Shown piece after piece: positions 42,613 through 59,076 of a stretch of DNA of 64,000 bases. The position numbers and the translations under genes were made by a program. Below the pieces are notes generated by a model, which saw nothing but the letters and a program-made list of their open reading frames with translations, was not told the DNA's origin and searched no databases. The stretch lies in the NCBI GenBank assembly GCA_965365945.1, contig CBDUDP010000009.1:21331-85330 (forward strand), read 5' to 3'. How positions within the stretch are numbered: position 1 is the stretch's first letter; every line of letters starts with the position of its first letter. Source of the stretch: an uncultured Gammaproteobacteria bacterium. GTDB taxonomy: Bacteria; Pseudomonadota; Gammaproteobacteria; Methylococcales; Methylomonadaceae.

Positions 42613-45600
42613 ATGGATTCATTAGTACGTTTTTCACTAAAACAGAAAGTCTTTTTTAACCTACTATTTGTTTTAATGTTTGTTGCTGGGTTTTTTGCTA
42701 TCAGTGAGCTTCCTGTTGAGCGCTACCCAAATGTGAATTTTGGTGAAGTAGTGATTACCACAATCTACCCTGGAGCATCACCAGGTGATGTAGAAGCCTT
42801 AGTCACTCGAAAGATAGAAGACAGTCTTGATAATATAGAAAATATAGAATGGTTAAAGGCCACATCTTACCCTGAGCGTTCATACGTACACCTTAAATTT
42901 GTTGACGACACCAACTATGAAGAGCTTTTTAACGAAGTGCGCTTAAAAATCCTCAATATTGTCAATGAACTCCCCGAAGAAACAGACCCTCCAGTCATTG
43001 ATAACTACACCGTTAATGACTTTTACCCGGTTGTCACTATCAATATTAGTGGGTCACAAGATAACCGTGCTTTAACACTTATTGCTAAAGAAATAAAAAC
43101 ACACCTAGAAAAGCTCTCCGGCATCAATAAGATTACAATAGAAGGTGAATATACTAGAGAATTTCACATCAATCTTGACCCTAAAAAATTACGCCTTTAT
43201 GGCGTTAGCTATAATGAGGTTGCTCAGACTCTAAAAGAAATTAACATATCAATACCTGCTGGTAGTGTTAATACACTCTATGGAAACTACCTAGTAAAAG
43301 TTGATGAAACATTCAATAATCGTGAGCAAGTCATCAAATCCATTATCCGCAAAGATGGTGACTCAAGTTTTCTTCGCCTAGAAGACTTAATTACTAATGC
43401 GCAACTTGATTATCGTGACCCTATCGTTATTTCATCCGTTAATGGGAAAAATGTCATCGCACTTAAAATCGTTAAAAACGATGCAGGCGATGCTTTATCC
43501 ATCAAAAAAGACATACTAGCAACACTAGATAAATTAAAACCACTCATAAACCAAGAACAATTAAATATTACATATACGCAAGACTCTACAATAAAAATTA
43601 ATGATGGAATCAGTACCCTAGGGCTCAACATGCTTGCCGGAATGATCCTAGTTTCAATCATTATCTGGTATTTCATGGGTATCCGGAATGCCGGACTTAT
43701 TACCATAGGTATTCCATTTTCTTTCATGATTACCATGATACTAATGCACTTAACAGGGAATAGCCTCAATGAAATGACACTATTCGCATTTGTACTAGTC
43801 ACAGGTATTATTGTCGACGATGCGATTGTAGTCACTGAAAATATTTACCGACACATTCAAGAAGGAAGAGACTTAGATCAAGCGGTAATTTTTGGTACCT
43901 CAGAAGTAGCCTTGCCCGTCATTGCGTCAACACTCACTACAATTTCCGCCTTCTTACCCATGCTGATGATGTCAGGGTCTACAGGTGAATTCTTTGCGCA
44001 AATACCTATAGCTGTATGCTATGCACTTATTGCCTCACTGATTGAATGCCTCATTATTCTCCCCATTCACTACTATGACTACGGGCCTCGCCAAAGCAAT
44101 GAGCTATCAACGCGCCTAGAAAAAGACGATTTTATTTTATCGACTATTCGCAGCATTACCGAAAAAACACTTAATATCACCCTTAAGTATCGTCGTTCCA
44201 GTTTATTAGTTATTGTTGCTCTATTCATTGCTTCAATAGGTATTTTAGCTGTTTCTATATCAGGAAAACTACCCTTGGTAAAAATTCAATTTTTTCCAAG
44301 TGATTACTCCGTCTACCATGTCAATATACAAGCAAACCCTGAGACACCAATAGAAGAAATTGATAACAAATTAAGGGAAATTTCTCAATACATACTTAAA
44401 GATGGACCAGGAAAGGTAGAGTCAGCGGCAGGCTTTGCAGGATACTATATCAGTGATAACTACCTCCCCATCCACAGTAATAACTATGGCGCTGTAATGG
44501 TCACACTCCCCGAAAAAGGTAAACGTAGCTTTACCGACCCCATGCAGCACCTAGAAGATATGCGCACTAAGCTTAAAGAAAAATTTGCACATAATGGCTA
44601 CCAAATTCATGTACAAGAACAAAAAGAAGGCCCTGTAACAGGTAAAGATGTTAGCGTAAGAGTTATAGGGAGCGATGAAACATCTATAAATGGGCTCACC
44701 CAAGCATTAGCCACATTTTTAAAATCAACACACTCTATAACACCTTATTTAGTTGACCTAAAAAATGACCAGGGACAACTAAAAAAGATTATTAACATAA
44801 AAATTGACCATGAAAAAACCAGCGAATACGAACTAAACAACAGTCAAGTTACACAACTGGCAGGGAGCGTTTTAGACGGTCAATATATTGGTAAATACCG
44901 GCTTAATGATGGAGAAATAGACTTAAAATTAGCCTTTACTCCCCAAAGTATTACCTCACTACAAAAGGTTTTAGAAATTCCTTTTATTGAAAATGCTACA
45001 GGGCCAATTCTATTAGGCGATATTGCACAACTACATAGCTATTCCGCAGAAGGCGAACTAAACCGCTATAACTCACAGCGCTCGGTCAACTTTGTTGCCA
45101 ACATCAAAACAGGAGCCCCTACCAATACAGCTACTGTACTACACGAAATAGATGAGTTTTACCAAAAAATACGCAATAACTACCCAGGAGCAAACCTGAT
45201 TTTTACCGGTGATTTTGCAGCCACACAAAAATCTTATACTTCTTTAGCCTACGCCTTTGTTATGGCTATACTAATTATCTATTTGATTTTAGCTGCTCAA
45301 TTTCAATCTTACCTACAACCTGTCATAATTTTATGCGCCATTATCTTTGCATTAATTGGTGTTATCTTAGGCAAGTTTTTTACTCAATCCTTATTTACAA
45401 TTAACAGCTTTATGGCTATTATTGGTGTCGCAGGTGTCGTCGTCAATGACTCGCTCATGCTAGTCGACTTTATGAATAAAAGTTATCGCGCCGGCCTATC
45501 TCGCCATAAAGCAATCACCGAGGGCATACGCGTAAGACTAAGACCTATAATGCTCACCACCCTAACAACCACTTTAGGACTTTTACCCATGGCTATTGGT

Positions 45601-45756
45601 ATTCCTTATTACTCAATCGTGTGGGGCTCTATGGCATCAACATTTGTAACAGGCTTGATAACGGCCACCTTATTAACGTTATTTATTGTTCCATTATTAT
45701 GGGATATGGTAATGGCAAGACAAGAAAGGAAATTAACTCCAGTAGTGGAAGAATAA
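42613..45756 (+). CDS. RND efflux permease (AcrB/AcrD/AcrF family)
   Basis: YPGASPGDVE..VT..IE, GIIVDDAIVVTENI, GVVVNDS and RLRPIMLTTLTT motifs. Confidence 0.94.
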   Translation: MDSLVRFSLKQKVFFNLLFVLMFVAGFFAISELPVERYPNVNFGEVVITTIYPGASPGDVEALVTRKIEDSLDNIENIEWLKATSYPERSYVHLKFVDDTNYEELFNEVRLKILNIVNELPEETDPPVIDNYTVNDFYPVVTINISGSQDNRALTLIAKEIKTHLEKLSGINKITIEGEYTREFHINLDPKKLRLYGVSYNEVAQTLKEINISIPAGSVNTLYGNYLVKVDETFNNREQVIKSIIRKDGDSSFLRLEDLITNAQLDYRDPIVISSVNGKNVIALKIVKNDAGDALSIKKDILATLDKLKPLINQEQLNITYTQDSTIKINDGISTLGLNMLAGMILVSIIIWYFMGIRNAGLITIGIPFSFMITMILMHLTGNSLNEMTLFAFVLVTGIIVDDAIVVTENIYRHIQEGRDLDQAVIFGTSEVALPVIASTLTTISAFLPMLMMSGSTGEFFAQIPIAVCYALIASLIECLIILPIHYYDYGPRQSNELSTRLEKDDFILSTIRSITEKTLNITLKYRRSSLLVIVALFIASIGILAVSISGKLPLVKIQFFPSDYSVYHVNIQANPETPIEEIDNKLREISQYILKDGPGKVESAAGFAGYYISDNYLPIHSNNYGAVMVTLPEKGKRSFTDPMQHLEDMRTKLKEKFAHNGYQIHVQEQKEGPVTGKDVSVRVIGSDETSINGLTQALATFLKSTHSITPYLVDLKNDQGQLKKIINIKIDHEKTSEYELNNSQVTQLAGSVLDGQYIGKYRLNDGEIDLKLAFTPQSITSLQKVLEIPFIENATGPILLGDIAQLHSYSAEGELNRYNSQRSVNFVANIKTGAPTNTATVLHEIDEFYQKIRNNYPGANLIFTGDFAATQKSYTSLAYAFVMAILIIYLILAAQFQSYLQPVIILCAIIFALIGVILGKFFTQSLFTINSFMAIIGVAGVVVNDSLMLVDFMNKSYRAGLSRHKAITEGIRVRLRPIMLTTLTTTLGLLPMAIGIPYYSIVWGSMASTFVTGLITATLLTLFIVPLLWDMVMARQERKLTPVVEE

Positions 45757-46250
45757 TTAATAAACGGCATCTTTCATGTTTACTAAAAAGTAGTTGACAC
45801 CTTTCGGTATCAAAACTAAACAGGAGGAAAATTCTATTAAGATTAACCGGTATTATAACTTTTAATTTTGTTAGAATAATTATGTATAGTTACTTATCTT
45901 CTTCTGATACAGCGGCCTTCCTAAACGCAGTATAAACTTCAGGAATCATTGTAGGCATAGCCTATTCCTATAAAAATAACCTAGTTAATATAGCTTTTTA
46001 TTATATGCTCTTGCATATAATAAATAATAGCTCAGACCCTTTTTATGAAAACCTGTCATCACGAACTGTTAAAAAACTGACACATTCTGGCTGCCACCCC
46101 TACCACCTAGGACTACAGTCAATGAATCAGCTACCAGAACCTATACAAAACTCATCAACACCATTAATCCAGCCCAGATCCAGAGAGGATTTTATCGCCT
46201 AGCCGGTTTTCAAATAAACACAGTGCTTATTTAAACTTGAAGTACAAGTA

Positions 46251-46485: not shown

Positions 46486-48171
46486 ATGATCCATAACAAA
46501 ATCAACAAAAGTACTCTTATAGCATTAGCAATAAATTGTTCGGCATCGCCCTTAATCATGGCTGCAACATACAACCCTCAAAGTGAAACAAGATCAATTT
46601 ATGACTTCTCTCCTTTAGAAAGCCAGTCTGAATTAACGAGCCTTTTTTTAGATCCTGTTCAGCAACAAGATACCAACATACAAAAAAAACACTATATTGA
46701 AACTCTTGATCTAATAAAGGAAAATAAACTACTCGAAGCAAAATTAAAAATTGATAATTTAATACAGCAGGCCCCAAATGAACCAGAAAATTATAATTTA
46801 CAAGCCCTTTTAGCAACACAAGAAAAGAATAGCAGTAAGGCTCAGAAAAGTTATCAAAAAGCAATTAAGTTAGATGCCAAAAATCTAATCGCACATCTAG
46901 GTTTAGCCAAACTTGCTTTAGACAAAGGAGACTTATTAATCGCAAAAGAATACTCTGAAAAATCGCTGATCATAAACGATAAATCAGTGTCAGCTTACCT
47001 TTTGCTAGCAGAAATTGCCAACACTAAAAAAAATGTTAAAGAAGCAGAGAATATACTATTAACTGCCATTAAAAAAGTAAAATATGATGCAATTAAAGCT
47101 ATAAACCTAGCTGATAATTTAGCTAAATTTTATGCCTTTCACAAACAGCCAGAAAAAATTCTTACTTTAAGTGAGAATCTACTGAAGCAGTACCCTAATA
47201 ACAAAAAAATGCTATCAATGCTGGCTAAGGCTCAAATATTAAATAATCAAACTAACTTAGCTGAACAAAGCTTACAACAATTAATTAATCAGGATAAGCA
47301 AGATATCGGACATAGGCTATTATTAGCTCGCATCCTAATCAATCAACAGAAAAATGAAAACAATATTTTAAAATTATTGAATGAAACATCGGCAATAGAT
47401 CCAAATGACCCAAGAGCACCTGCGTATAAAGCGGCTTATTTAATTCAACTAAATCGCTACAAGGAAGCATTAAAAATTACAGACGAGCTCGAGTTACAAT
47501 TTCCAAAATTAATGATAGGAAAATTATTAAAAGCCGATGTCTACTTAGCAGAAAAAAAGTTTGATAAAGCACTTAACATCAAGTTACAGGCTTACCAAAT
47601 AGAGCCTAATGAAAGGTTATTATCCAGCATAATTTCCTTGATGAATATGCAAGGGCAATTACCGAAGGCCGTTGAGTTACTTAAGCAAGAACTAACAAAA
47701 AAACCTAACAACAACGCAATCCATTTTGAATTAGCTATTCTCTATCAAAAGATGGGTAACTTAACGCAGGCTACTAAGCATTATCAAGCTGTTCTAAATA
47801 AAACTCCTAAGCATGCTGTTACCCTCAACAATTTGGCTTGGATTTATGTACAACAAGGTAATCCACAAGCTCTACAATTTGCAAAAAAAGCTTATAGCAT
47901 GGCACCAGAATCCGCTAATATTACTGATACATACGGGTATATACTACTTAAACAAGGACAGAATAAAGAAGGATTAAAAATTTTACTAATAGCAGAAAAA
48001 TTATCCCCCAAACAACCTGAAATTCAATTCCATTTAGCTCAAGCTTATTCTGCTAACAATGATACGAAGCAAGCTATAGCAACATTGAAGCCTATCGTGG
48101 TAGAGGGACTAACTTATTCAGAAAAAGAATCAGCCATTAGTTTATTAAAAAAATTAACAGCTGACCAATAA
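46486..48171 (+). CDS. TPR-repeat exported protein, PrsT-like C-terminus
   Basis: Signal-like N-terminus, TPRs, LNNLAWIY...ITDTYGYILLKQG...IQFHLAQAY tail. Confidence 0.8.
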   Translation: MIHNKINKSTLIALAINCSASPLIMAATYNPQSETRSIYDFSPLESQSELTSLFLDPVQQQDTNIQKKHYIETLDLIKENKLLEAKLKIDNLIQQAPNEPENYNLQALLATQEKNSSKAQKSYQKAIKLDAKNLIAHLGLAKLALDKGDLLIAKEYSEKSLIINDKSVSAYLLLAEIANTKKNVKEAENILLTAIKKVKYDAIKAINLADNLAKFYAFHKQPEKILTLSENLLKQYPNNKKMLSMLAKAQILNNQTNLAEQSLQQLINQDKQDIGHRLLLARILINQQKNENNILKLLNETSAIDPNDPRAPAYKAAYLIQLNRYKEALKITDELELQFPKLMIGKLLKADVYLAEKKFDKALNIKLQAYQIEPNERLLSSIISLMNMQGQLPKAVELLKQELTKKPNNNAIHFELAILYQKMGNLTQATKHYQAVLNKTPKHAVTLNNLAWIYVQQGNPQALQFAKKAYSMAPESANITDTYGYILLKQGQNKEGLKILLIAEKLSPKQPEIQFHLAQAYSANNDTKQAIATLKPIVVEGLTYSEKESAISLLKKLTADQ

Positions 48172-48173
48172 GT

Positions 48174-48257
48174 ATCAAAAACTCAGCCGCAAGCGACCGA
48201 GTTTGACAAAGCCACAGCTGATTTTATTTAAAAACCATTAGTTTCCAAATTTTCCGA
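48174..48257 (+). repeat. copy 1 of an ~84-bp structured repeat (partial, degenerate)
   Basis: Aligns without gaps to 53397-53480 with about a dozen mismatches. Confidence 0.85.
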
Positions 48258-48332: not shown

Positions 48333-49475
48333 TTACGACGCCCTAAGTTCTGACGTCTCGACACCACTGATAACTCGAAAGCATAAAGTACGACAAATAT
48401 TCATTAATATTTTGTTTGCAACTGTACTTTCGTACTTTAATAAGCGAGACATCGCCGCTTCATCAAGACTTAAAACCCGAACATTTCCTGTAGCCGCCAC
48501 AATGCTTGCCGTTCGAGGCACTTTTAAGAAATATGCAATTTCTCCTATAATTTCTCCAGGCGCTATAACTGCCTGTAGCTCCTTGCCTCGTCTAACCTCT
48601 ACAACACCTGAAAGTAGTACAAATATTGTTTTTGCAGAGTTATTTTTTTCAATAATATGATCACCTAATGAACATTCAATGATATGGCTCTTTTCAATGA
48701 CACGTTTAATTTCATCATCTCCAAGTTCATCAAATATTTTTGGCTTCGTATTTGAAAGTAACTGAGTATCAGCATAAATCTGACTCAGATATTCTCCTTG
48801 CCCTTCAATAGAATAACTAACAATATTAGTCGTATGATCAATTTTATGAATCAATTCATTCGTATGCAAACAATGACTCAGATCCTCCTCTCTCGTTAAC
48901 ATAGCAAATGGAGAGCCAACTTTCTTCAGATGCTCATAATCACCTGTAATTAAAATCATGGGGATAACCAACCCTATGCCTGGATAAGTATAAGTTTCAG
49001 TAAAAGGACGAAATCCCAACTTTAAATAAGAGTTTAAATGATGAGGTTCGCAGTCTAAAAAAACAGCTTCAACGTAATGATCCAATACAAAATGCATTAC
49101 CTCCTTATACATTCGTAGAGTTGTAGTCGATCCACGATGTGTCTCATCAACCATTAAGCGTTCAACTATGCAAATTTGTTTTGCATCCAGTAAATTAATA
49201 AACGGGGATAAGTGATAGGCTTCTATTAGTGATTGAGAAAAATCAGTATCTCCGCCCCAGAAGAGCCTAAGCGTACCAATAGCAACTCCATCCTTAATTG
49301 CAATGACAGCTCTCGCTTTTTCATCATTCTCATCACGTAACTCTTTTTGAATATGGTCACCTTTATCTTTGAGCCTACCCATACATTCTACATAAACCTT
49401 GTAACGTAATTGATAGGAAGCACGAAGCTCTTCTTCGGTTTCCGCAAATCTAACGCCATCTTCCATATTTATCAC
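48333..49475 (-). CDS. FeeM-type N-acyl amino acid synthase (GNAT) fused to a C-terminal cNMP-binding domain (NasP-like architecture)
   Basis: ASYQLRYKVYV, IGTLRL, VERLMVD...RGS and YLKLGFRPF motifs; cNMP cassette IGEIAY...PRTASIVA. Confidence 0.82.
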   Translation of the reverse strand: MINMEDGVRFAETEEELRASYQLRYKVYVECMGRLKDKGDHIQKELRDENDEKARAVIAIKDGVAIGTLRLFWGGDTDFSQSLIEAYHLSPFINLLDAKQICIVERLMVDETHRGSTTTLRMYKEVMHFVLDHYVEAVFLDCEPHHLNSYLKLGFRPFTETYTYPGIGLVIPMILITGDYEHLKKVGSPFAMLTREEDLSHCLHTNELIHKIDHTTNIVSYSIEGQGEYLSQIYADTQLLSNTKPKIFDELGDDEIKRVIEKSHIIECSLGDHIIEKNNSAKTIFVLLSGVVEVRRGKELQAVIAPGEIIGEIAYFLKVPRTASIVAATGNVRVLSLDEAAMSRLLKYESTVANKILMNICRTLCFRVISGVETSELRAS

Positions 49476-49734
49476 ACCTTTTAGTTTGAATCGTAGTCTG
49501 CTTGTGAATCACAGAATTTTGATTATGAGCACTCTAGAATAGTGAAAATCACCCTAGCCAGTCAATAAAAGTAACTGTTACTCTGCATATAACTCACATT
49601 CAAAACATTTATTACTAGCTTATTATTAAACACCTAATAATAAGTTGTTTTTAGTGCTTTGTATTTTAGCAATAAGATTGCAAATTAGGAATGGCGACAG
49701 ATCAATTAAAGCGGCATTCAAGAATATAAAAATA

Positions 49735-50750
49735 GGCTATGCCTGCATTAACTGTTGGTTTGCACTATATATACTATTGAATAGAAAAAGAAAAAATTGG
49801 AGACATAATCATGAGAAAGCAAGATTTTCAACATTGGCTAGGTCAGGTAACGCAACTGATAAACCATCAAAAAATACAAACCACAGACGAGTTATCTGGC
49901 AATACCCTCAATCGATTAACGGAAATCAATTAAGTGAAGTTAACCATTGTCCACACTGTGACTCATCTTTATTCGGTCACTGGGGCCAATCGAAGATTTA
50001 CCACGATACTACTGTAAAACATTCAACGCCTTAACGGGGGGCCTTTAGCTAGACTGTGGCATCAAGATCAATGGGTGCAATACGCGAATACGATGATTCA
50101 GAGTTTTAGTATTCAAAAGTCGGCACGATTGGTAGGCATTGATAAAAACATTTCATTCCGCTGGCGACACTGATTATTAATGTGTCCAACCTTCGATAAA
50201 CCAGAACATTTAACGGATATTGTTGAAGCTGATGAAACTTTTTTCTCTAATCACACAAGAGAGAAAAGAACCTATCACGCCCAGCTCGCAAGCAAGGTGG
50301 AAAAGCCCATAAACGAGGTGTATCTACAGAGCAGGTTCCTGCCCTTATTATGCGTGATCGTAGCGGTGTTACTTCTGAAGCTCTATTGCCCAACGTAAGT
50401 GCGGATGCTTTGGCCAAGGTTTTAATGCCTATTTTAGAACCTGATGCTATTTTATGTTCGGACGGGCACAGGAGTTATTAAACCTTTGCTAGAGTATCGG
50501 GGGGTATTCATCAGCCTGTTAATTTGGCTCCTGGTATCAGCGTGGCAGATAAAGCCTTTCATGTTCAAAATGTAAATGCATACCATCACCGCTTTAAATC
50601 TTGGCTAGACCGCTTTCATGGTGTTGCAACCAAGTATTTACCTAATTATTTGGGGTGGTGCAGGGTAATGGATCAGAACCACAATTTAACACCAGAGAAA
50701 TTGTTACATTCTGCTCTTGGTGATTTTCAATACTTAACGGTGACATGGCC
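49735..50750 (+). mobile_element. IS1595-family element with a frameshifted transposase
   Basis: Imperfect TIRs GGCTATGCCTGCATTAACTGTTG and CAATACTTAACGGTGACATGGCC (16/23). Fragments CPHC, EADETFF, LCSDG and HVQNVNAYHHRFK...GVATKYL.NYLGW lie in different frames. Confidence 0.9.
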
Positions 50751-50965
50751 AATTTATTTGGAGGAAAATTTAACTTAGGAATGAACATTTAAAACCCGAA
50801 AGTTTTATTATGTAGAGCTGCTAATATCTAAGGAACTGATAGTGGTTTCGGATATTATTTAACTTTTATTCCTTAGTAAACTCCCGCTAAGTAGACTGAG
50901 TTTATTTGCAATAACTCGATTTTCCAATGAAAATCATTATTTATGGGAATAAGTAGTATGATTTC

Positions 50966-51005
50966 AAAAAAAAACCTCATGCGGAAAAATCATGAGGTTT
51001 TCTTT
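50966..51005 (-). terminator. intrinsic terminator after the PEP-CTERM gene
   Basis: AAAACCTCATG-N9-CATGAGGTTTT stem with a long T tract on the minus strand. Confidence 0.8.
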
Positions 51006-51025
51006 GGTCATTGTACAGATATATA

Positions 51026-51925
51026 TTATTTAGCTTGCTTGCGATGTCTTAGACCTAAGCCAATCAAACCAAAGCCTAAAAGAGCAATACTTGTTGGCTC
51101 AGGTACAGCCACAAACTCACTATCTTGTGAACCAAGTAAATATGTTGTTGCATCTACTGCTATACCAACACCATTAAATTGGCCAGTACTAACTTGAATA
51201 TTGTAAAATGGAATAGGATCTACAAAAAAATCACTCCCATCATAACCCACAGCGTTATCAACAAGGTTAAAAGTTGAAGTTACTCCATAACTTCCACAGT
51301 TATTATCACCTGTACAAGTTTGATTACCATTACCTGAAGTAGTGGCACCTAAAGCCAATAAAACATCGTCAACGGTATTATTAACTGAATAAAAAGCACC
51401 TCCTGTAGATGGCTCCGAACCACCCACACCAGCTGTACCATTATTAAGAGGATTAACATTGCTATCATTGTTCATATCAGCATAGAATCTCAACTCATCA
51501 ATAGTACCTGCTCCCGCGAGAAAGGTAAATTCCGTAGATTCAGTAGCAAGACCAAAATCTGTTGTTACGAAAGTACCACCACCTTGATAAAGCGCATATA
51601 GATCATAAGTAATCCCGCCTCTACTAGATGAATCAGCTAGATCGTATGAAGCACCCAAAGGAGAATGCAATGTACCCACATCAAAGTAAAGTGATGTCTG
51701 GAAAGTACCCGCCCCCGTACCAGGATCAAAGGCAGTAATTGTAGTGGCTTCATTATATGAACCACTCATTCTGTCAACATCTGTTATTGTTGCATCTGCT
51801 TTAGTCCCACCAGTAAATGACTCATTGACTGAGAATAAAGGTGCAGCAATTGCGCCATTACTTACAACACCCATGCCTGCCATCAAAAGTGCCGTTACAA
51901 GCGGTTTCTGTATTAGTGTTTTCAT
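51026..51925 (-). CDS. PEP-CTERM sorting-domain protein, PepA (flocculation-associated)-like
   Basis: Signal peptide; Thr/Gly/Ser-rich beta-like body (YDLYALY, CTGDNNCGSYG); C-terminal VPEPTSIALLGFGLIGLGLRHRKQAK. Start placed at ATG 51925 with a GGAG RBS. Confidence 0.93.
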   Translation of the reverse strand: MKTLIQKPLVTALLMAGMGVVSNGAIAAPLFSVNESFTGGTKADATITDVDRMSGSYNEATTITAFDPGTGAGTFQTSLYFDVGTLHSPLGASYDLADSSSRGGITYDLYALYQGGGTFVTTDFGLATESTEFTFLAGAGTIDELRFYADMNNDSNVNPLNNGTAGVGGSEPSTGGAFYSVNNTVDDVLLALGATTSGNGNQTCTGDNNCGSYGVTSTFNLVDNAVGYDGSDFFVDPIPFYNIQVSTGQFNGVGIAVDATTYLLGSQDSEFVAVPEPTSIALLGFGLIGLGLRHRKQAK

Positions 51926-51978
51926 TTTCTTTGCTCCAAAAGTTATTTTCAAGAAATGCCAAATTACAATCAGATTAA

Positions 51979-51994
51979 AGCAGTTCCTATACCA
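51979..51994 (-). promoter_or_regulatory. sigma-54 (-24/-12) promoter of the PEP-CTERM gene
   Basis: Minus strand TGGTATAGGAACTGCT (GG-N10-GC). Confidence 0.72.
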
Positions 51995-52057
51995 TATTTT
52001 TTTTTACATTAAAAAACAATGTATTACATAAAAAATGAAAAATAGAAAAATAGAAAC

Positions 52058-52074
52058 TGTAAAATTTTCTGACA
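52058..52074. promoter_or_regulatory. enhancer dyad (candidate PEP-CTERM box / PrsR site)
   Basis: TGTAAAATTTTCTGACA (TGT-N11-ACA), 64 bp from the -24 element. Confidence 0.68.
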
Positions 52075-52268
52075 TAATTTAACTATTTACTAAATAGCGG
52101 TAAGTCAATTTACTCCAACCTTAACCACTTATCACAAATCAGAAAATCTTCCATGCGTTTCTGCAAGTTCAACTGCATTCCTACTATTCGCAACAAAACA
52201 CTGAATTAATGCACGCTCTAGCCGATACTCCTCACTTATCTAGTTTAACTTGATATTATTAGTTCTTA

Positions 52269-52285
52269 TGTAAAAAAAACTGACG
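52269..52285. promoter_or_regulatory. second candidate PEP-CTERM box
   Basis: TGTAAAAAAAACTGACG, same TGTAAAA-N4-CTGAC pattern and orientation as 52058. Confidence 0.55.
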
Positions 52286-52352
52286 CCGGAAAATCACCTA
52301 TTAACACGTAACAATTATTTCCTTATTTTTTGCAAGTCTGGTTATTTAGACA

Positions 52353-53210
52353 TTAAATACCCAGCATTTTTCGAGCTATTAAAAACTTTAATTTTTGCAA
52401 AGGATTTCGGTTACCCAACCAAAGATAACCTTTTTTCAAACGATTCAGCCGAGCATCATAACAAGTATAATGTGGTATTGGTTTTAGCTCATTAGGATGC
52501 AAAATAGCTAAAATAGTTTGCGTTATTACCATACCTGTTGCTAGCTTACAGCCACTGGCAATACTGGGAGCCTGTCTTTTATTTAAATCCACTGACGCTG
52601 GGTCTACATATTTCAAATGAAAACCTGCAGGAGCACAAGCTAAGGACATTTTTAATACTTGCAGTGCTGGAGGCGCGCTGTAGTCAAGATCAAAATAATC
52701 ATCAAAAGACATCCCATCAGTCGTATAGACCAGCATTCCTATACCAAATCCTAGCGGGACACCAAAAATAGCTGGTATACCTTTTTCCATACAAGCATTA
52801 ATAATCAAACGGTGAACTTCGATTTCAAAAAACTCAACCGCATCAACAAAAACATCCACACCCTCTAAAAAATCATCAACATTATCTTTATTAACCCCTT
52901 CACCATAACTTTTTATATTTGCCTCGGGGTTAATATCTAGAGCTAACTCCCCCATCACATCCATTTTTTGACGACCCACAGACGACATAGTCGCGCCATA
53001 CTGCCGATTAAAGTTACCCACCTCAAAGTCATCAAAATCTGATATTTTAAAGTTACCAATCCCTGCTCTAGCCAGTGTTATTAAGTAATCCCCACCCACT
53101 CCACCCATACCAGCAATAGCAACTGTCGACTTTCTTAACACCTGCTGCTGATCATGACTAACTATGCCGTGGTTTCTTGAAAAAGCCAGTTTGTAATCGA
53201 ATTGTGTCAT
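52353..53210 (-). CDS. ThiF/E1-like adenylyltransferase (FeeI-like)
   Basis: AFSRNHG, VAIAGMGGVGG, DFDDFEVGNFNRQ and GNRNPLQKLK tail. Confidence 0.88.
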   Translation of the reverse strand: MTQFDYKLAFSRNHGIVSHDQQQVLRKSTVAIAGMGGVGGDYLITLARAGIGNFKISDFDDFEVGNFNRQYGATMSSVGRQKMDVMGELALDINPEANIKSYGEGVNKDNVDDFLEGVDVFVDAVEFFEIEVHRLIINACMEKGIPAIFGVPLGFGIGMLVYTTDGMSFDDYFDLDYSAPPALQVLKMSLACAPAGFHLKYVDPASVDLNKRQAPSIASGCKLATGMVITQTILAILHPNELKPIPHYTCYDARLNRLKKGYLWLGNRNPLQKLKFLIARKMLGI

Positions 53211-53396
53211 TGTATTACCTTATATTATTGTCATTGCTTCAACTATTTTTATTACTTGATTATTTCACTTACGAGCTGCTCATGATGCCTTAAGAACAAC
53301 CATACAATAAGTAAAAAATACCTTAGGTAAATATAGCCAATTAGCTCTTTAATAACAATTAATTTTTACCTCTAACGGCTAACATCATTAGTAAAC

Positions 53397-53511
53397 ATCA
53401 AAAACTCGGCCGCAAGCGACCGAGTTTGGCAAAGCCAGAGCTGATTTGACTTGAAAACCATTGGTTTTCAAGCTTTCCGACTAATGTGCCGGAGGCAAGC
53501 CTCCGAGTTTT
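53397..53511 (+). repeat. copy 2 (full) of the structured repeat: terminal IRs and three hairpins
   Basis: Ends AAAAACTCGG...CCGAGTTTTT; internal TTGAAAACCA-T-TGGTTTTCAA and GGAGGC-AA-GCCTCC. Confidence 0.82.
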
Positions 53512-53598
53512 TCTTCGCGATAAAAACAAGTAATACCTCATTTTTCTTTTGGAACTCATACAGCCATTTATCAGTAAAGCAAGCTATAATGAAACCCA

Positions 53599-53637
53599 AT
53601 TACCCACATTCTTAGCTATACTAAGAATGTGGGTAAT
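53599..53637. repeat. perfect 17-bp-arm palindrome
   Basis: ATTACCCACATTCTTAG-CTATA-CTAAGAATGTGGGTAAT. Confidence 0.8.
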
Positions 53638-53764
53638 CAGGCGATGAAAACCCATCATTCTCTTCACTTATATTTTTATCTCCAGCAATTGATAATTGCT
53701 TTTTTCCGCTTTGTAATCATTCATTGACCCTAGGGCTATAGGGAAAATCCATTAAAAAATCTCT

Positions 53765-54112
53765 CTACCTATCCAAATACCCTACTTGTAACCACGGAAT
53801 TTTAGTCCATATCAAATAATGCACGTAATCTAAGATTTCATCGTAATGCTCTTTAATCGCTGCAAACAGCGAGGAACAAACCCAAAGAGATTTAAAAAAA
53901 TTGGCTGCAAGCAGGTCGAGCCTTAAAGCCATAAGTTGTCTCAGCCTACTTTTCTTCTTCTCATGCTCTTTAAACTGACCTTGAACACTAACTGCTAGCA
54001 TTCCCTGCGACTTACCAACCGATAAACATGACCTGTACTCCCCAGTAACTTCATAACCTAGATAACTTACAATAAAAAACCATTGCAAGCTATCTAGGTC
54101 GAGGCAAGTCAC
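53765..54112 (-). pseudogene. unassigned ORF or gene relic
   Basis: 115-codon open frame with a GTG start; no clear RBS and no recognisable motif. Confidence 0.2.
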
Positions 54113-54277
54113 CCGAGATTTATGCTATAGAGTTAAACGAGATTTTGTCACAGATACCCGACACCTTACCAAAATAAATAATTCTCATTACATTCCAACC
54201 AATTACTATGTTAAATAACATTTTTACCTCATTAAACTCCAGAATCATCCTCTCATCTACTGCCTACTTCATATATC

Positions 54278-54295
54278 TGTCGTGTAAATATGACA
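54278..54295. promoter_or_regulatory. TGTC-N10-GACA dyad, candidate enhancer
   Basis: TGTCGTGTAAATATGACA, about 100 bp upstream of the sigma-54 site; a second TGTC-N10-GACA lies at 54146-54163. Confidence 0.45.
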
Positions 54296-54391
54296 ATTTA
54301 TTCAAATAAAATCACCTTTTATAATAGATACTCCCTTTAAAAAAGAACGCCCTCCTTATATTTAAAAGCACCTAGCATTACTTATCATAAG

Positions 54392-54407
54392 TGGCATACC
54401 AATTGCT
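54392..54407 (+). promoter_or_regulatory. sigma-54 promoter of the second acyltransferase
   Basis: TGGCATACCAATTGCT, near-consensus -24/-12, 33 bp before an ATG with a GGAG RBS. Confidence 0.82.
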
Positions 54408-54440
54408 TGATATATAACAAATACTTCAGAGGAGACGTAG

Positions 54441-55292
54441 ATGTTACCAAATTTAGCTTTTAACCCAGTAAAAATACAACCTATAGCCGGATTACATTCT
54501 CAACCTCAAACTGTGAATATACTGAAAGATGGCGTTCGTTTTGCCGAAACCAAGGCTGAGCTTCGCGCATCTTATCAATTACGCCATAAGATCTATGTTG
54601 AGGGAATGAATAGATTTTCAGATAAAAGCAATCACGAGCTAAAAGAACTACAAGACGAGCATGATAAAAATGCCCGCGCGATTGTTGCAATTAAAAAAAA
54701 TAAACCAATTGGTACTTTACGAATTTTCTGGGGTGGAGATACTAATTTTACTCAAGAACACGAAAAAACGTATCACATTTCAAAATTCACCTCATTATTG
54801 CAAGCAAAGAAAATTTGTATAGTTGAACGATTAATGGTTGAAAATAACGCTCGAGGATCCTTAACTATTTTACGGATGTATCAGGAAGTTATGAATTTTG
54901 TTCTTAAGAACAGGGTTGAGGTCGTATTACTTAATTGCGAACAACACCATATGAATTCTTACCTAAAACTAGGGTTTCGTCCTTTTGCTCAGCAAACTAT
55001 GTATCCAGGTATTGGCCCAGTAACACCAATGGCTCTTGTTGTCGGTGACTACAAATACCTTCAGTCTATAGGCTCTTCATTTTCCCAATTAATTAATGAA
55101 GAAAACTTAAACCACTGCCATCATGTTGAAAGCCTTAAAAAGATAATTGACCACGATACAAAATCTGACTCAAAATCAAGTTCAGATAAAAATACGATCG
55201 TTAGTAATTTTTGTGCAGCTCGTCAAAAGTTATTGGCAAAAAGAACCAATATATCTGACTCGAAATTAAGAATGAAATTAAGCGTCTGCTAA
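54441..55292 (+). CDS. FeeM-type N-acyl amino acid synthase paralog lacking the cNMP domain
   Basis: DGVRFAET..ELRASYQLR, IGTLRIFWGGDT, ICIVERLMV and NSYLKLGFRPF shared with 48333-49475. Confidence 0.82.
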   Translation: MLPNLAFNPVKIQPIAGLHSQPQTVNILKDGVRFAETKAELRASYQLRHKIYVEGMNRFSDKSNHELKELQDEHDKNARAIVAIKKNKPIGTLRIFWGGDTNFTQEHEKTYHISKFTSLLQAKKICIVERLMVENNARGSLTILRMYQEVMNFVLKNRVEVVLLNCEQHHMNSYLKLGFRPFAQQTMYPGIGPVTPMALVVGDYKYLQSIGSSFSQLINEENLNHCHHVESLKKIIDHDTKSDSKSSSDKNTIVSNFCAARQKLLAKRTNISDSKLRMKLSVC

Positions 55293-55499
55293 ATGATTTA
55301 TACTTCCTTTCAAGTGATCATCAATTAATACTTACTGTTCTATTTCGGTAAGCCGAGCATAACCGAAATTTAACCCCTGAAATATCACTCAATTCGGCAC
55401 TTAACGATGACATAGCCGTCCTTTTGGCTATGTCATCGTTAAGTGCTGAAAAATTTATTAAGTAATTACCCCCCCCCCCTCAATTCTCCTTTACCAAGG

Positions 55500-55701
55500 C
55501 ATAGGTACCCACACATCTTTTGGTGAGAAAAAACACCCTGTAGGATGGGTAGAGCTATGTGCCTATCTTTTTAGGCATATAGTGAAACCCATCACAATGT
55601 GCATAAAGTGATGGGTTTCGCAAGAAGACACTCTACCCAAGTCATTGAAAGTATATATTAAAATTAATTTCTTGTAGGCCTTGTTTGTGTAGATACCTAT
55701 G
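55500..55701. mobile_element. nested ~200-bp MITE
   Basis: TIR CATAGGTAYCYACACA (14/16); TTACCAAG direct repeats at 55491-98 and 55702-09. Confidence 0.6.
55540..55639. repeat. GTAG REP doublet inside the nested MITE
   Basis: GTAGGATGGGTAGAGC...GAAACCCATCAC-N12-GTGATGGGTTTC...CTCTACCCA. Confidence 0.75.
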
Positions 55702-55798
55702 TTACCAAGAGGGAAGACTTAAGAGCTAACTTAAATCTACACTTAACGATGACATGGCCGTCCTTTTTGACTTATTTCTATAACTTCAATACCTATGA

Positions 55799-56272
55799 CT
55801 ATAAATATTTTTCAATATCATGAACTTTAAGCCCCCAAGCCATAAGGTGCTCGACACGTTGATTAGCTTTATTTAAGCGAGTTACGGAAATCTCAAATAA
55901 ATTTTTATAAAAAAGATAGCCTAATACAGGGTGTGCATCTAAAAAAACACTCAGTTTTAAACCATCCACTTCGAAAACACAAGAATCCGTTACCGCAATA
56001 ACTGTTGCTATGCGCGGGCTGGATTCATGCAGGCACGTCTCACCAAAAATACTGCCTTTTTCTAAGTCACAAATCCCTGTCTGCATATTTTTTTTATCAT
56101 CCAACTCTACATTCCCGGTCACCCGAAGTGCTCCCTCCTCAATAACAAACAGCGTTTCACCTAATTCACCTTGTTTAACGACCTGCTCATTAGCTTTAAA
56201 ATTATGTCGCTTCCAAGCAACACCTTCTTCAAATTGGGGATTTTCTAGGATTTCATGCAATATATTTTTCAA
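55799..56272 (-). CDS. stand-alone cyclic-nucleotide-binding domain protein
   Basis: VVKQGELG..LFVIEEG and FGE...SPRIATVIA; no HTH. Confidence 0.88.
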   Translation of the reverse strand: MKNILHEILENPQFEEGVAWKRHNFKANEQVVKQGELGETLFVIEEGALRVTGNVELDDKKNMQTGICDLEKGSIFGETCLHESSPRIATVIAVTDSCVFEVDGLKLSVFLDAHPVLGYLFYKNLFEISVTRLNKANQRVEHLMAWGLKVHDIEKYL

Positions 56273-56280
56273 AACAATAC

Positions 56281-57687
56281 CTACTGATGTGGAATACTGA
56301 CTGTGGATTCGGGAAATAAACGTTTAATTTCTGTTTGTAACTGCAATTTAGCGGATTGATCGCCATGCACCAATCTAATCTCTTTAGGTTTCTTGCGCAT
56401 GCCTTTAATAAAGCGCAATAAACCGGCTTGATCGGCATGCGCTGAATAGCCACTTAAGGTATAAACACCAGCATTAATAGTTAATCGCTGACCATCAAGT
56501 TCTATATAGCCATTTCTATTAGCATATTTTTGAATCTGACGACCCGTAGTACCGATCGCTTGATAGCCAACAAATAATATATCGGTACGCTGGTCTTCAA
56601 TCAAAGCTTTGAGATAGTTAACAATGCGCCCACCACTACACATACCACTGGCTGCAAGCACTATACAAGGACGCGCAGTTCTTTTTAAATAATCGATAGC
56701 ATTTAAATGATCTTGGTGGGTATTAATTGTCGTTAATTGCTCAAATGAAAGCGGGTGCCTACCTGCATTTATTTTTTTATTTGCTTCTTCATCCCAATAA
56801 GGGCGAAGTTTTTTATAAACTTCAGTGAATTTATTCGCTAAAGGTGAGTCGACAATGATTTCAAGATCATCCCAGTTTTTTGATTTTGCTACAGGCGATT
56901 GCTTAAAGTGATAAATAATATCTTCTAACTCGTAGAGTAATTCTTGTGTCCTACCAATACTAAAAGCAGGAATTAGAATAACACCGCTATTCGTAAAGCA
57001 TTTTTCTATCACTGATTTTAATTGTTTTCTTCTCGCTTTCCGGTTTTCATGATTTTTATCGCCATAAGTACTTTCTAGTACTAATATGTCTCCTTTATAG
57101 GGTGACTTTGGCGAAGGCAATAGCGGCGTATAAGAAGCACCTAAATCGCCCGAAAAAACAATACGCTGTTTATTAAAATCACATTCCACATAAGCTGAAC
57201 CTAAAATATGCCCCGCAGGCTGTAGTTTTATTCTGACTGCTTGTGAAGTATTAAGTAGAGGGATTGCCTGCCACTGCTTATATGGCAAGGCAACGATTCT
57301 AGTTTGAATAAGTGTCAGGAATTTTTCCACTAAGGCTTTATCTTTAGTAAAGCCAATTTTTATGGCATCTTCTAAAACCAGTGGCAGCAGTTGGGCGGTC
57401 GGTTCGGAGCAGTAGATTTTCCCTTTAAACCCAGCCGCTAATAAATAAGGGATTCGCCCTACATGATCAATATGGCAATGGGTAACAACCAAGGCCTGAA
57501 CTTGCTCGATAGGAAAATCGATTTTTAATTGCTCAAAATTAGAGCCATTAGGTGAGGTTTCGGCTCCCTGAAATAAGCCACAATCAATAAGTATTGAATT
57601 TTTAGCATTAAGATGTAACTCATGACAAGAGCCGGTTACGCCATTAACCGCGCCATGGTGAGCTATTTTTATAGAATTACCCTGCAA
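56281..57687 (-). CDS. metallo-beta-lactamase/beta-CASP hydrolase (RNA-processing type)
   Basis: HHGAVNGVTGSCH, THCHIDHVGR, GHILGSA, PAFSIGRTQE and YSAHADQ motifs. Confidence 0.9.
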   Translation of the reverse strand: MQGNSIKIAHHGAVNGVTGSCHELHLNAKNSILIDCGLFQGAETSPNGSNFEQLKIDFPIEQVQALVVTHCHIDHVGRIPYLLAAGFKGKIYCSEPTAQLLPLVLEDAIKIGFTKDKALVEKFLTLIQTRIVALPYKQWQAIPLLNTSQAVRIKLQPAGHILGSAYVECDFNKQRIVFSGDLGASYTPLLPSPKSPYKGDILVLESTYGDKNHENRKARRKQLKSVIEKCFTNSGVILIPAFSIGRTQELLYELEDIIYHFKQSPVAKSKNWDDLEIIVDSPLANKFTEVYKKLRPYWDEEANKKINAGRHPLSFEQLTTINTHQDHLNAIDYLKRTARPCIVLAASGMCSGGRIVNYLKALIEDQRTDILFVGYQAIGTTGRQIQKYANRNGYIELDGQRLTINAGVYTLSGYSAHADQAGLLRFIKGMRKKPKEIRLVHGDQSAKLQLQTEIKRLFPESTVSIPHQ

Positions 57688-59076
57688 TTACCTTGCTCCT
57701 CTGCCCCATAAAATCACTTCCACTGTCCCCAAAATAATCGAGAGATCTAAAAATAGACTAGAATTCTTTACATAATATAAGTCATATTCCAGCTTATTAA
57801 TGGTATCTTGTTCATTTGCTCCGTAAGGGTAACAAAGCTGCGCCCACCCTGTAATTCCTGGCTTGATTCGATGCCGTTCAGCATAAAAAGGAATTCTTTC
57901 TTCAAAGCCTTCAACGAATTCAGGCCGCTCAGGTCGAGGCCCAACAAAACTCATTTCACCCTTTAAGACATTAAATATTTGCGGCAATTCATCGATACGA
58001 CACTTCCTAATAAACCGCCCTACTCGTGTAATACGATCATCATTTTTTTGTGCCCATTGAGCGCCATTTTTCTCTGCATCTGTGCGCATACTACGAAATT
58101 TCATAACACCAAAGTGCTTATTTCCTTCTCCAACTCGAATTTGCCTATATAAAATGGGAGCTTTAACCCCACTTTCTATCATAATCGCCAGTGCTGTTAG
58201 CAACATAAAAGGCCAAGCAACAGCTAATAAACCAAGGCTCGCGACAATATCGACGACTCGTTTTATCGCAGATCTCAATCCACTAAAGTCAAAGCCATCA
58301 GAAAATAAAACCCAACTCAACGTTAACCCATCAAGATAAATCAAGCCTTGTTCACGCTCATAAAAGCTTAATAAATCCATAATTTGCACACCTAAAGCTT
58401 TACAATCCAACAAATCTTTCAGCGGCATAGCTTTACGCCGATCATCTATAGCAATAACAATTTCATCGATTTGATAGTCAATTACTATCTGAGCCAGTGT
58501 TTGCGTATTTGCTATTAATAATTTTTCATCAACAGCACTATTCTCTTCACCTACATCAAAAAAACCAACAATGCTAAAGCCTTTATGCACATACTGATTA
58601 TTGACATTATTTAATTGTTTGGCCTTTTCACCAGTACCTAGCACTAATACACGACGCAGTATCTTATCAAGGTTAACATATCGATAAAACAAATAACGAC
58701 TAGTCATCATGCCTAAAAATGCAAAAACAAGCGCATAAACAAACACACTACGCGCCATAAAGTATTTGGGGAATAAATAATAAATACTGACTGTAATAAT
58801 TGCGCCAATCAGAAAACTGATGCAGACACGTAAAACTAAATTATAATCTTCCCAATCAAGACTTCTTCTGTATAAACCTAACCCAATACAAGATAGATTT
58901 AAAGCTACCGAAAAAATAACACTGGCTTCAATAATATCTGTATCTGTATACCAAGAGGAAACAGTCAAAAATCGGATATCACTCCCTAAGTACATCGCGA
59001 GAAAAAAGAGTAGCCACTCGCCAATCATTAAGCCTAAATAGGCACTAGAAATATAATGTTTAAAAATCCTAATCAC
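57688..59076 (-). CDS. PEP-CTERM/XrtA-system priming sugar transferase (TIGR03013/WcaJ-like)
   Basis: MIRIFKHYI start, four TMs, FKFRSM-like GVMKFRSM, RIDELPQ..NVLKGEMSFVGPRPERP. Confidence 0.92.
   Translation of the reverse strand: MIRIFKHYISSAYLGLMIGEWLLFFLAMYLGSDIRFLTVSSWYTDTDIIEASVIFSVALNLSCIGLGLYRRSLDWEDYNLVLRVCISFLIGAIITVSIYYLFPKYFMARSVFVYALVFAFLGMMTSRYLFYRYVNLDKILRRVLVLGTGEKAKQLNNVNNQYVHKGFSIVGFFDVGEENSAVDEKLLIANTQTLAQIVIDYQIDEIVIAIDDRRKAMPLKDLLDCKALGVQIMDLLSFYEREQGLIYLDGLTLSWVLFSDGFDFSGLRSAIKRVVDIVASLGLLAVAWPFMLLTALAIMIESGVKAPILYRQIRVGEGNKHFGVMKFRSMRTDAEKNGAQWAQKNDDRITRVGRFIRKCRIDELPQIFNVLKGEMSFVGPRPERPEFVEGFEERIPFYAERHRIKPGITGWAQLCYPYGANEQDTINKLEYDLYYVKNSSLFLDLSIILGTVEVILWGRGAR

Follow-up and report, generated by a model that had tools for sequence, protein, structure and literature searches.

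A putative N-acyl amino acid and oxazolone-type lipid module in a PEP-CTERM/exosortase exopolysaccharide locus of a Methylomonadaceae bacterium

Genes coding for N-acyl amino acid synthases (NAS) are reportedly linked to PEP-CTERM/exosortase loci, a link ascribed to Craig et al. in 2011. Analysis of contig CBDUDP010000009.1 of an uncultured gammaproteobacterium (assembly GCA_965365945.1; genome size 3.39 Mb, completeness estimate 100%) indicated that two predicted NAS genes lie together with a ThiF-family gene and a gene for a PEP-CTERM protein in the 64,000-nucleotide stretch C9:21331-85330 of this contig, hereafter called the window. Genes of the window were called from a listing of its open reading frames (ORFs) and from Pfam and NCBIfam scans, and the homologues of the ThiF and NasP-like proteins put the host among the Methylomonadaceae methanotrophs. 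The gene set probably codes for a small-molecule lipid module, in which NAS and a ThiF enzyme of the oxazolone type would act inside a PEP-CTERM/exosortase exopolysaccharide (EPS) locus.

The closest described systems are those of oxazolone synthesis. OxzA makes N-acyl-tyrosine and OxzB, a ThiF-nitroreductase protein, gives oxazolones solely with ATP; the products of Pseudoalteromonas rubra and other proteobacteria are the oxazolones tyrazolone and phenazolone, and azlactones were described as versatile intermediates (bioRxiv 10.1101/2020.06.11.147165). In Mycobacterium tuberculosis the acylation of Tyr or Phe falls to TyzA, TyzB is a cyclase that depends on ATP and TyzC, an oxidase dependent on flavin (FDO), is an O2-dependent desaturase; TrzS (Rv1355c) is the fused form, in which cyclisation precedes desaturation, disabling the FDO leads to a build-up of the saturated cyclised intermediate, and an Asp to Ala change in the adenylation motif abolishes cyclisation (PMC10404671, PMC12856293). 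In clusters of Stieleria, genes for methyltransferase, ThiF and nitroreductase accompany several NAS genes, and a PEP-CTERM gene lies inside these clusters (PMC7293339, PMC12479983). NasP, from soil environmental DNA, is reported to be a cAMP-activated NAS in work cited in PMC4897644.

The corresponding genes and promoter regions of the window are the following.

48333-49475, minus strand: NasP-like synthase, FeeM-type GNAT with a C-terminal cyclic nucleotide monophosphate (cNMP)-binding domain (Pfam FeeM, Acetyltransf_5 and cNMP_binding)
51026-51952, minus strand: PepA-like PEP-CTERM protein (NF033554 floc_PepA, 111 bits, cut-off 80; PF07589)
51979-52075, minus strand: PrsR/sigma-54 'PEP-CTERM box' before the PepA-like gene, recognised from its sequence
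52353-53210, minus strand: stand-alone ThiF-family ATP-dependent enzyme (NF006077/PRK08223, 337 bits, cut-off 266)
54146-54407, plus strand: promoter region of the cNMP-less synthase, with two dyads and a -24/-12 element
54441-55292, plus strand: second synthase, FeeM-type, without cNMP domain (Pfam FeeM, PF21926)

A preliminary description of the window had placed five module genes here, these four and a stand-alone cNMP-binding protein gene, and the Pfam and NCBIfam domain calls confirmed all of them.

Comparison with OxzA/OxzB revealed that in both cases an N-acyltransferase gene adjoins a ThiF-family gene, that the window ThiF scores on NF011424 (PRK14851, a di-domain model of 679 aa; 294 bits over the ThiF half of the model), and that di-domain ThiF-FDO proteins with an adjacent NAS gene occur in the bacterial order of the window. 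The window ThiF also matches the ThiF part of PRK14852, a 'hypothetical' model of 989 aa. It differs from OxzB in being stand-alone, in carrying Glu126 instead of Asp and in coming from a genome without FDO. The synthases differ as well, being FeeM-type (one of them fused to a cNMP domain) and not of the TIGR03694 type seen with the di-domain forms, of which the genome of the window has none; the PEP-CTERM setting of the window goes unmentioned in bioRxiv 10.1101/2020.06.11.147165. The likeness to TyzABC and TrzAS lies in the separability of cyclase and FDO, as shown by TyzB and TyzC, in the match of the FDO of relatives of the window to the TrzS family, and in a nearby RND (resistance-nodulation-division) superfamily transporter (mmpL9 there, an RND pair in the window), while the window belongs to another phylum, lacks the FDO, carries signatures of cNMP and sigma-54 control, and has an RND neighbour without conservation in related loci. 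Craig-type NAS loci and the stieleriacine cluster resemble the window in that their NAS genes are set within a PEP-CTERM/EPS locus, and the Stieleria cluster also holds several NAS genes, a ThiF gene and a PEP-CTERM gene together. By contrast, the Stieleria cluster has nitroreductase and methyltransferase genes and makes N-acyl dehydrotyrosines (PMC7293339, PMC12479983), and it has neither the cNMP fusion nor the PrsKR/sigma-54 box, which is restricted to Proteobacteria (Haft 2006, PMC1569441). The NasP-like protein shares with NasP a synthase domain followed by a C-terminal cyclic-nucleotide-binding domain, the relatedness being judged solely from this architecture, and differs from it in having a paralogue without cNMP domain under a sigma-54 promoter.

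Analysis of the ThiF-family protein indicated that it is a predicted cytoplasmic member of the OxzB/TyzB/TrzS (oxazolone cyclase) lineage, in a group here called subclade A. It has no signal peptide, no membrane segment and no CxxC, and its GxGxxG, NxNRQ and Lys are intact. When 1.8 billion representative proteins were searched exhaustively, 361 ThiF hits fell below 1e-30, many of them 650-690 aa or 870-980 aa long. The Pfam scan of ten homologues revealed ThiF+nitroreductase (P0124, 666 aa), nitroreductase+ThiF, FeeM+ThiF (P0126, FeeM/GNAT+ThiF) and FeeM+ThiF+nitroreductase architectures (P0258, 982 aa; P0182, 870 aa), together with methyltransferase+ThiF proteins with or without FeeM or nitroreductase (such as P0269, methyltransferase+ThiF+FeeM). 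The window ThiF is no orphan E1 enzyme; it falls in a clade whose members are fused or adjacent to NAS and a nitroreductase-type FDO. The proposal that the synthases and the E1-like enzyme belong to one pathway is supported by the existence of FeeM-ThiF fusions and by the co-occurrence of the genes across genomes. The proteins that join FeeM, ThiF, nitroreductase and S-adenosylmethionine (SAM)-methyltransferase domains (P0258, P0182, P0126, P0269, P0217 and P0128) are metagenomic and come from several orders, and PRK14852, an unnamed NCBIfam model, is the counterpart of the 982-aa P0258.

The closest solved structures to the window ThiF are TcdA cyclodehydratases (tRNA t6A), and the PDB search returned no solved structure of OxzB or TyzB. 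A sulfur-carrier or protein-activating E1 of the ThiF/MoeB/MccB type would be expected to have a ThiS/MoaD-like or peptide substrate gene nearby, a CxxC zinc site, a rhodanese domain or a catalytic Cys. The window ThiF does not fit this type: the protein has no CxxC and falls far short of the ThiF and MoeB cut-offs; no gene for a small Gly-Gly protein was present in the ORF list of the window, and a separate housekeeping ThiF/MoeB paralogue was located on contig C7.

About 60 loci were collected, several of them from metagenome-assembled genomes (MAGs), and annotated with hidden Markov models (HMMs) built from the sequences gathered here. The ThiF phylogenetic tree showed that the window clustered in a clade of 23 rows, subclade A (support 100/99), inside the NAS/FDO-associated radiation. 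Its members come from Methylomonas, Methylobacter, Methylicorpusculum, Methylomarinum, Methylomicrobium and Crenothrix, from a Bathymodiolus methanotrophic symbiont and from three Sedimenticola species, and their ThiF proteins are 71-89% identical to that of the window. Between the window and Methylomonas methanica the ThiF (77% identical) is more conserved than PrsR (66%) and PrsK (47%). Subclade A is marked by substitutions at four otherwise conserved columns, D126E, R133H, A150G and R239P. Column 126, which aligns with the Asp of the adenylation motif (Asp217 in TrzS), holds D in 45 alignment rows and E in 24, E being the mark of subclade A. The sister clade B takes in the remaining members of the order, together with Alteromonas and others, and is accompanied by TIGR03694 'exosortase-associated acyltransferase' synthases and by an FDO, split in some cases and fused in others. 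FeeM-type synthases accompany subclade A alone among the ThiF clades. Planctomycete loci carry ThiF and FDO, often with a PEP-CTERM gene.

The block conserved in subclade A consists of a short PrsT-like tetratricopeptide repeat (TPR) protein, the NasP-like synthase, the FDO in some members, the PepA-like protein and ThiF. PrsT-like orthologues of 557-567 aa adjoin ThiF or NasP-like genes in loci L007, L015, L016, L035, L038 and L072. In subclade A a NasP-like fusion always goes with ThiF, and in most cases so does a second, cNMP-less synthase with a sigma-54 promoter. The NasP-like FeeM+cNMP fusion adjoins ThiF in 13 subclade A loci and lies elsewhere in the genome in the Bathymodiolus symbiont, G058, G109 and G110. 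The genes of the module thus occur together in related loci, and the lack of co-occurrence in other genomes, named in the preliminary description as a refutation of its reading, was clearly not seen. Two genomes, G107 (the methanotrophic symbiont of Bathymodiolus puteoserpentis) and G058, keep the full set split over two loci, with ThiF and the short PrsT-like gene on one contig and the NasP-like gene (with or without the FeeM-only gene) and FDO on another.

In the NasP-like synthase of the window the FeeM domain covers residues 20-174 and the cNMP_binding domain residues 270-347, and the phosphate-binding cassette of the latter (G-E...P-R-T-A; IGEIAYFLKVPRTASIVA) is intact. More than 100 homologue clusters have the same FeeM+cNMP architecture, and the protein is 85% identical to its nearest metagenomic relative. 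In the Methylomonas MAG locus L041 (4031-5174) the NasP-like gene is in two frames of 104 and 273 aa, possibly by frameshift or assembly error. The two synthases of the window are 56% identical over 246 aa (tblastn), and both FeeM (PF21926) proteins are encoded within 4 kb of the ThiF gene. Although the layout of two synthases and two cNMP domains had been thought unusual, a tandem of NasP-like and cNMP-less FeeM genes was found in at least eight related genomes or contigs (L009, L038, L039, L041, G058, G109, G110 and Methylomarinum Ch1-1); two synthases are therefore ordinary for this lineage.

ThiF was detected in 29 of 101 sampled genomes of the order. PrsK is present in 26 of these 29 genomes and in 29 of the 72 without ThiF (Fisher p = 5e-6, uncorrected for phylogeny). 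Two genomes of the genus of the window, G100 and G035, have neither PrsK nor the NasP-like synthase, and G100 carries a clade B ThiF adjoining a TIGR03694-type synthase; the PEP-CTERM/NasP block as a whole therefore varies from one member of the genus to another.

Two genes had been claimed to have sigma-54 promoters, and both motifs were found, their orthologous positions being conserved in relatives. The box before the PepA-like gene is composed of motif 1, ATGTCAGAAAATTTTACA (52075-52058), a spacer of 63 nt and the -24/-12 element TGGTATAGGAACTGCT (51994-51979, minus strand). The start codon of this gene is likely the ATG at 51925, to judge from the GGAG before it, with 53 nt between the sigma-54 motif and the ATG; the C-terminus of the protein is VPEPTSIALLGFGLIGLGLRHRKQAK. 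Proteobacterial PEP-CTERM genes are preceded by a 17-nt motif 1 ending in TTTACA, a spacer of 62.8 nt on average and a sigma-54 motif, and the phyletic profile of this two-motif element matches those of PrsK, PrsR and PrsT (Haft 2006, PMC1569441). The box of the window matches this architecture, its motif 1 likewise ending in TTTACA, and both motifs were aligned before the PEP-CTERM gene in eight related loci.

The FeeM-only gene carries the sigma-54 element TGGCATACCAATTGCT at 54392-54407 (plus strand), 33 nt before its ATG, and two TGTC-N10-GACA dyads (54146-54163 and 54278-54295) lie 246 and 114 nt upstream of this element. These are the only two such dyads in the 64 kb (0.45 expected). Dyads of the looser form TGTC-N9/10-(G/T)ACA are present upstream of both sigma-54 elements, the one of the PepA-like gene lying at 52075-52058. 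The motif TGGYAY-N5-YTGCT has four matches in 64 kb against 0.42 expected, a number never reached in shuffled sequences, and two of the four directly precede the PepA-like and cNMP-less synthase genes. In L009, L041 and M. methanica (L004) the synthase promoter, TGGCATAC-N-A-N-TTGCT, likewise precedes the FeeM-only gene. No sigma-54 motif was found before the NasP-like or ThiF genes in any examined locus, the window included. The dual control proposed in the preliminary description is plausible in this form, with sigma-54/PrsR-type promoters on the PepA-like and cNMP-less synthase genes and with the other synthase bearing a cNMP cassette that is intact.

In M. methanica, Sedimenticola and G066 a separate gene for a nitroreductase-like protein of 355-363 aa, the FDO, lies beside the ThiF, NAS and PEP-CTERM genes, and the FDO of these relatives aligns with the C-terminal half of PRK14851 and with that of the Rv1355c (TrzS) family (160 bits for the latter). 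No FDO was found in the genome of the window by tblastn with the M. methanica protein or by profile search; the best match of the FDO HMM over 15,145 stop-to-stop frames of this genome was an ordinary nitroreductase of 215 aa (22.7 bits). FDO is also absent genome-wide from S. selenatireducens DSM 17993 and from Methylobacter, Methylicorpusculum, Crenothrix and Methylococcaceae MAGs, while it is kept in G066, G058, S. selenatireducens BK-1, M. methanica and the Bathymodiolus symbiont; loss is therefore recurrent. In the window, the space between the NasP-like and PepA-like genes is occupied by a remnant of an insertion sequence (IS).

49645-50778, plus strand: IS1595-family transposase remnant in at least three frames (ORF fragments), between the NasP-like and PepA-like genes

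The piece at 50524-50778 matches annotated IS1595 transposases with 50-63% identity (tblastn against plasmids), the Pfam scan of the three transposase fragments gave no match, and no other copy of the remnant was found in the genome of the window. Since the FDO gene of G066 lies exactly between the NasP-like and PEP-CTERM genes, the IS1595 element was considered as a replacement of the FDO gene. This was rejected, because the FDO-less ThiF-PepA-NasP order recurs without the IS in relatives that lack FDO altogether, and the IS therefore did not remove FDO here. Three intergenic spaces of the module contain repeats resembling miniature inverted-repeat transposable elements (MITEs), at 53397-53525, 48174-48257 and 50766-50876. 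Copies with 95% identity to the 129-nt repeat at 53397-53525 lie on contigs C10 and C17, and window positions 48174-48257 show 88% identity to it; for the repeat of about 110 nt at 50766-50876, the rest of the genome holds at least five copies, all of them diverged.

From the gene content, families, fusions, synteny, promoter motifs and FDO absence described above we infer the following chemistry and regulation. PrsK/PrsR and sigma-54 presumably switch on the PepA-like and cNMP-less synthase genes together, and cAMP or cGMP presumably gates the NasP-like enzyme allosterically, as reported for NasP. The two FeeM-type synthases, both presumably cytoplasmic, would N-acylate an amino acid, as expected from their family. 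The ThiF enzyme would adenylate the N-acyl amino acid at its free alpha-carboxylate with ATP, and the amide oxygen would then close the ring to give a 5(4H)-oxazolone, a reaction demonstrated for OxzB, TyzB and TrzS. The canonical next step would be desaturation by the FDO to a stable oxazolone of the tyrazolone type. As the genome has no FDO, the expected output would be N-acyl amino acids together with a saturated, hydrolytically labile and racemisation-prone oxazolone or an acyl-adenylate; such an oxidase-less oxazolone would either revert by hydrolysis, possibly with racemisation, or be attacked by a nucleophile.

Several points weigh against assigning an oxazolone-type module to the window. 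The genome lacks the FDO by which the characterised pathway is defined, and this excludes the known unsaturated oxazolone as end product. Subclade A carries Glu at the position where the Asp to Ala change in TrzS abolishes cyclisation, and His for a conserved Arg, and therefore its chemistry may differ. The proteins of the window were compared with the characterised OxzB, TyzB and NasP only through NCBIfam models and domain architecture, and the tie of the sigma-54 sites to PrsR rests on motif and neighbourhood. The IS remnant and the MITE-like repeats make some decay possible.

Saturated 5(4H)-oxazolones are reactive acylating agents and racemise readily. The FDO-less ThiF might thus be an activating enzyme, with the N-acyl-aminoacyl adenylate or the saturated azlactone serving as acyl donor and no free oxazolone as end product; the acyl group would go to an amine or hydroxyl acceptor (an amino sugar of the EPS, a lipid or the side chain of a protein), or else the amino acid would simply be epimerised. 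We regard this as rather unlikely. The ready acylation and racemisation by saturated 5(4H)-oxazolones fit it, as do the intact ThiF proteins, 71-89% identical across two orders, of at least six subclade A genomes without FDO, and the substitutions D126E, R133H, A150G and R239P that this subclade has made its own at conserved positions. Those four substitutions, however, occur in members both with and without FDO; the FDO-positive members L004, L006, L016, L036, G058 and G107 carry them too, and therefore they do not track FDO loss, nor is any candidate transferase conserved in the block. A more specific version is put forward as a doubtful idea: the saturated azlactone or acyl-adenylate made by the FDO-less Glu126 ThiF would be the donor through which the N-acyl amino acid is joined to an acceptor in the envelope that is connected with the PEP-CTERM system, with PepA, an amino sugar of the EPS and the exosortase nucleophile as candidates; if true, it would explain why acyl-amino-acid synthases are always found beside exosortase loci.

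That the module is decaying, with ThiF and/or one synthase unused and N-acyl amino acids or nothing being made, appears very unlikely. The IS1595 remnant between the NasP-like and PepA-like genes, the MITE-like repeats in three intergenic spaces, the absence of FDO from the genome and the frameshifted NasP-like gene of the related Methylomonas MAG (L041) would all suit it, but the five module ORFs are all intact, ThiF and the NasP-like protein remain 88% and 85% identical to their nearest metagenomic relatives, the promoters are conserved, and the FDO-less ThiF, PepA, NasP order recurs in Methylobacter, Methylicorpusculum, Crenothrix and Sedimenticola.

Of the two targets once suggested for the E1-like enzyme, the acyl-amino acid agrees with the chemistry of OxzB, TyzB and TrzS, while adenylation of the exosortase-processed C-terminus of PepA, to which an acyl-amino acid would be attached as lipid anchor, is highly improbable even though a PEP-CTERM gene adjoins ThiF or NAS in most loci of several clades and phyla and MccB and PaaA, ThiF enzymes that adenylate peptide C-termini, are among the PDB matches: the ThiF protein, whose characterised relatives act on small molecules, needs ATP and has no signal peptide or membrane segment, cleavage of PEP-CTERM proteins is placed by the published model on the periplasmic side, once export has occurred (Haft 2006, PMC1569441), an N-acyl amino acid has no free amine for attack on the acyl-adenylate, fusions join ThiF to synthase and oxidase but never to a PEP-CTERM protein, and ThiF and NAS occur without a nearby PEP-CTERM gene in Alteromonas and G100. 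Taken as a whole, the observations of the preliminary description (genes and promoters) stood and its interpretation was half right, the single pathway being upheld and both the PEP-CTERM terminus as target and the unusualness of the arrangement being given up; the known oxazolone pathway and the missing oxidase partner had escaped it.

The surroundings of the putative lipid module are those of an EPS locus. Bases 1-32 kb of the window carry housekeeping genes (dnaE, bamA, nqrA-F and efp/epmAB), and the PEP-CTERM/exosortase EPS locus begins about 33 kb into the window.

33085-36450: DUF748/AsmA-like protein of 1121 aa (860 bits on PF05359), at the housekeeping-side edge of the EPS locus
37988-39346, minus strand: PrsR, sigma-54-dependent response regulator of the PEP-CTERM system (TIGR02915, 717 bits, cut-off 503)
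39358-41430, minus strand: PrsK, XrtA/PEP-CTERM histidine kinase (TIGR02916, 686 bits, cut-off 300)
41605-42609 and 42613-45756, plus strand: RND efflux pair, adaptor and permease (TIGR01730, NF033617)
46486-48171, plus strand: short PrsT-like TPR protein of 561 aa (TIGR02917, 277 bits, below the cut-off of 312)
55799-56272, minus strand: stand-alone cNMP-binding protein of 157 aa (PF00027), last gene of the operon 59893-55799
56281-57687, minus strand: beta-CASP metallo-beta-lactamase (MBL) hydrolase (Pfam Beta-Casp, RMMBL)
57688-59076, minus strand: EpsB_2, priming glycosyltransferase of the XrtA system (TIGR03013, 557 bits)
59108-59893, minus strand: trypsin-like protease (Pfam Trypsin_2)

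The NCBIfam calls bear out the RND, TPR and prsKR genes named earlier as neighbours, and the exosortase, whose location had been left to be found, was located at C9:91232-92080, roughly 6 kb outside the window on its 3' side. It passes the generic model TIGR02602 (159 against a cut-off of 106) and falls below the XrtA model (158 against 208), XrtA still being the nearest subfamily. PrsK, PrsR, the exosortase, EpsB_2 and the PEP-CTERM protein are all found in one locus, as in the XrtA system, and together with the promoter box of PepA they constitute the likeness to the PEP-CTERM/XrtA regulon (Haft 2006, PMC1569441). The window departs from that regulon in its TPR protein, a short PrsT paralogue below the cut-off whose TIGR02917 match is confined to the C-terminal half, in the exosortase scoring under the XrtA cut-off, and in the second sigma-54 promoter, with its 18-bp dyads, which would drive a gene that codes for a synthase and not for a PEP-CTERM protein.

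The protease, EpsB_2, beta-CASP and cNMP-binding protein genes form a four-gene operon with gaps of 31, 0 and 8 nt. The gap of 0 nt between the beta-CASP hydrolase and EpsB_2 corresponds to translational coupling, and the best NCBIfam matches of the hydrolase are ribonucleases of the Cas14/aCPSF1 type, far under the cut-offs. The free cNMP protein belongs to this EPS operon. It is 51% identical to a stand-alone M. methanica orthologue beside prsK and 26% identical to the cNMP domain of the NasP type and, given these identities and its place at the end of the operon, it was discarded as a split-off NasP domain. Likewise, the RND pump was discarded as a part of the conserved module, no RND match being present in the other subclade A loci; the adjacent pump could nevertheless export the predicted lipid. 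A 65-aa ORF at 46005-46202, flagged as a PEP-CTERM protein by a regular expression, was a false positive without hydrophobic tail. A GMP/PMI gene adjoins the DUF748/AsmA-like protein gene at the edge of the EPS locus. In the housekeeping part, pqiA (10156-11416) consists of two overlapping ORFs of 214 and 207 aa, matching positions 9-201 and 215-402 of the 403-position PqiA model, which may be either a natural split or a frameshift.

The NAS-ThiF oxazolone pathway is itself already known, and the literature answers most of the puzzle raised in the preliminary description; the variant features of the window are the predicted cNMP gating, the paralogue that would be driven by sigma-54, the absence of the oxidase and the Glu of the adenylation motif; as far as the literature was examined, the recurrent oxidase-less Glu126 subclade is not covered in published work. 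The link of NAS to PEP-CTERM/exosortase loci, known since 2011, has lacked an explanation in chemical terms, and the oxazolone pathway was described between 2020 and 2025, mostly without mention of the NAS-exosortase link. The window and the approximately 60 collected loci reveal that a ThiF cyclase, usually with an oxidase, travels with those synthases and a PEP-CTERM gene, an association that spans Methylococcales, Sedimenticola, Alteromonas, Planctomycetota and others, and that in Proteobacteria one synthase paralogue has a sigma-54 promoter resembling that of the PEP-CTERM gene. Through the locus of the window, the NAS-exosortase question becomes directly testable.

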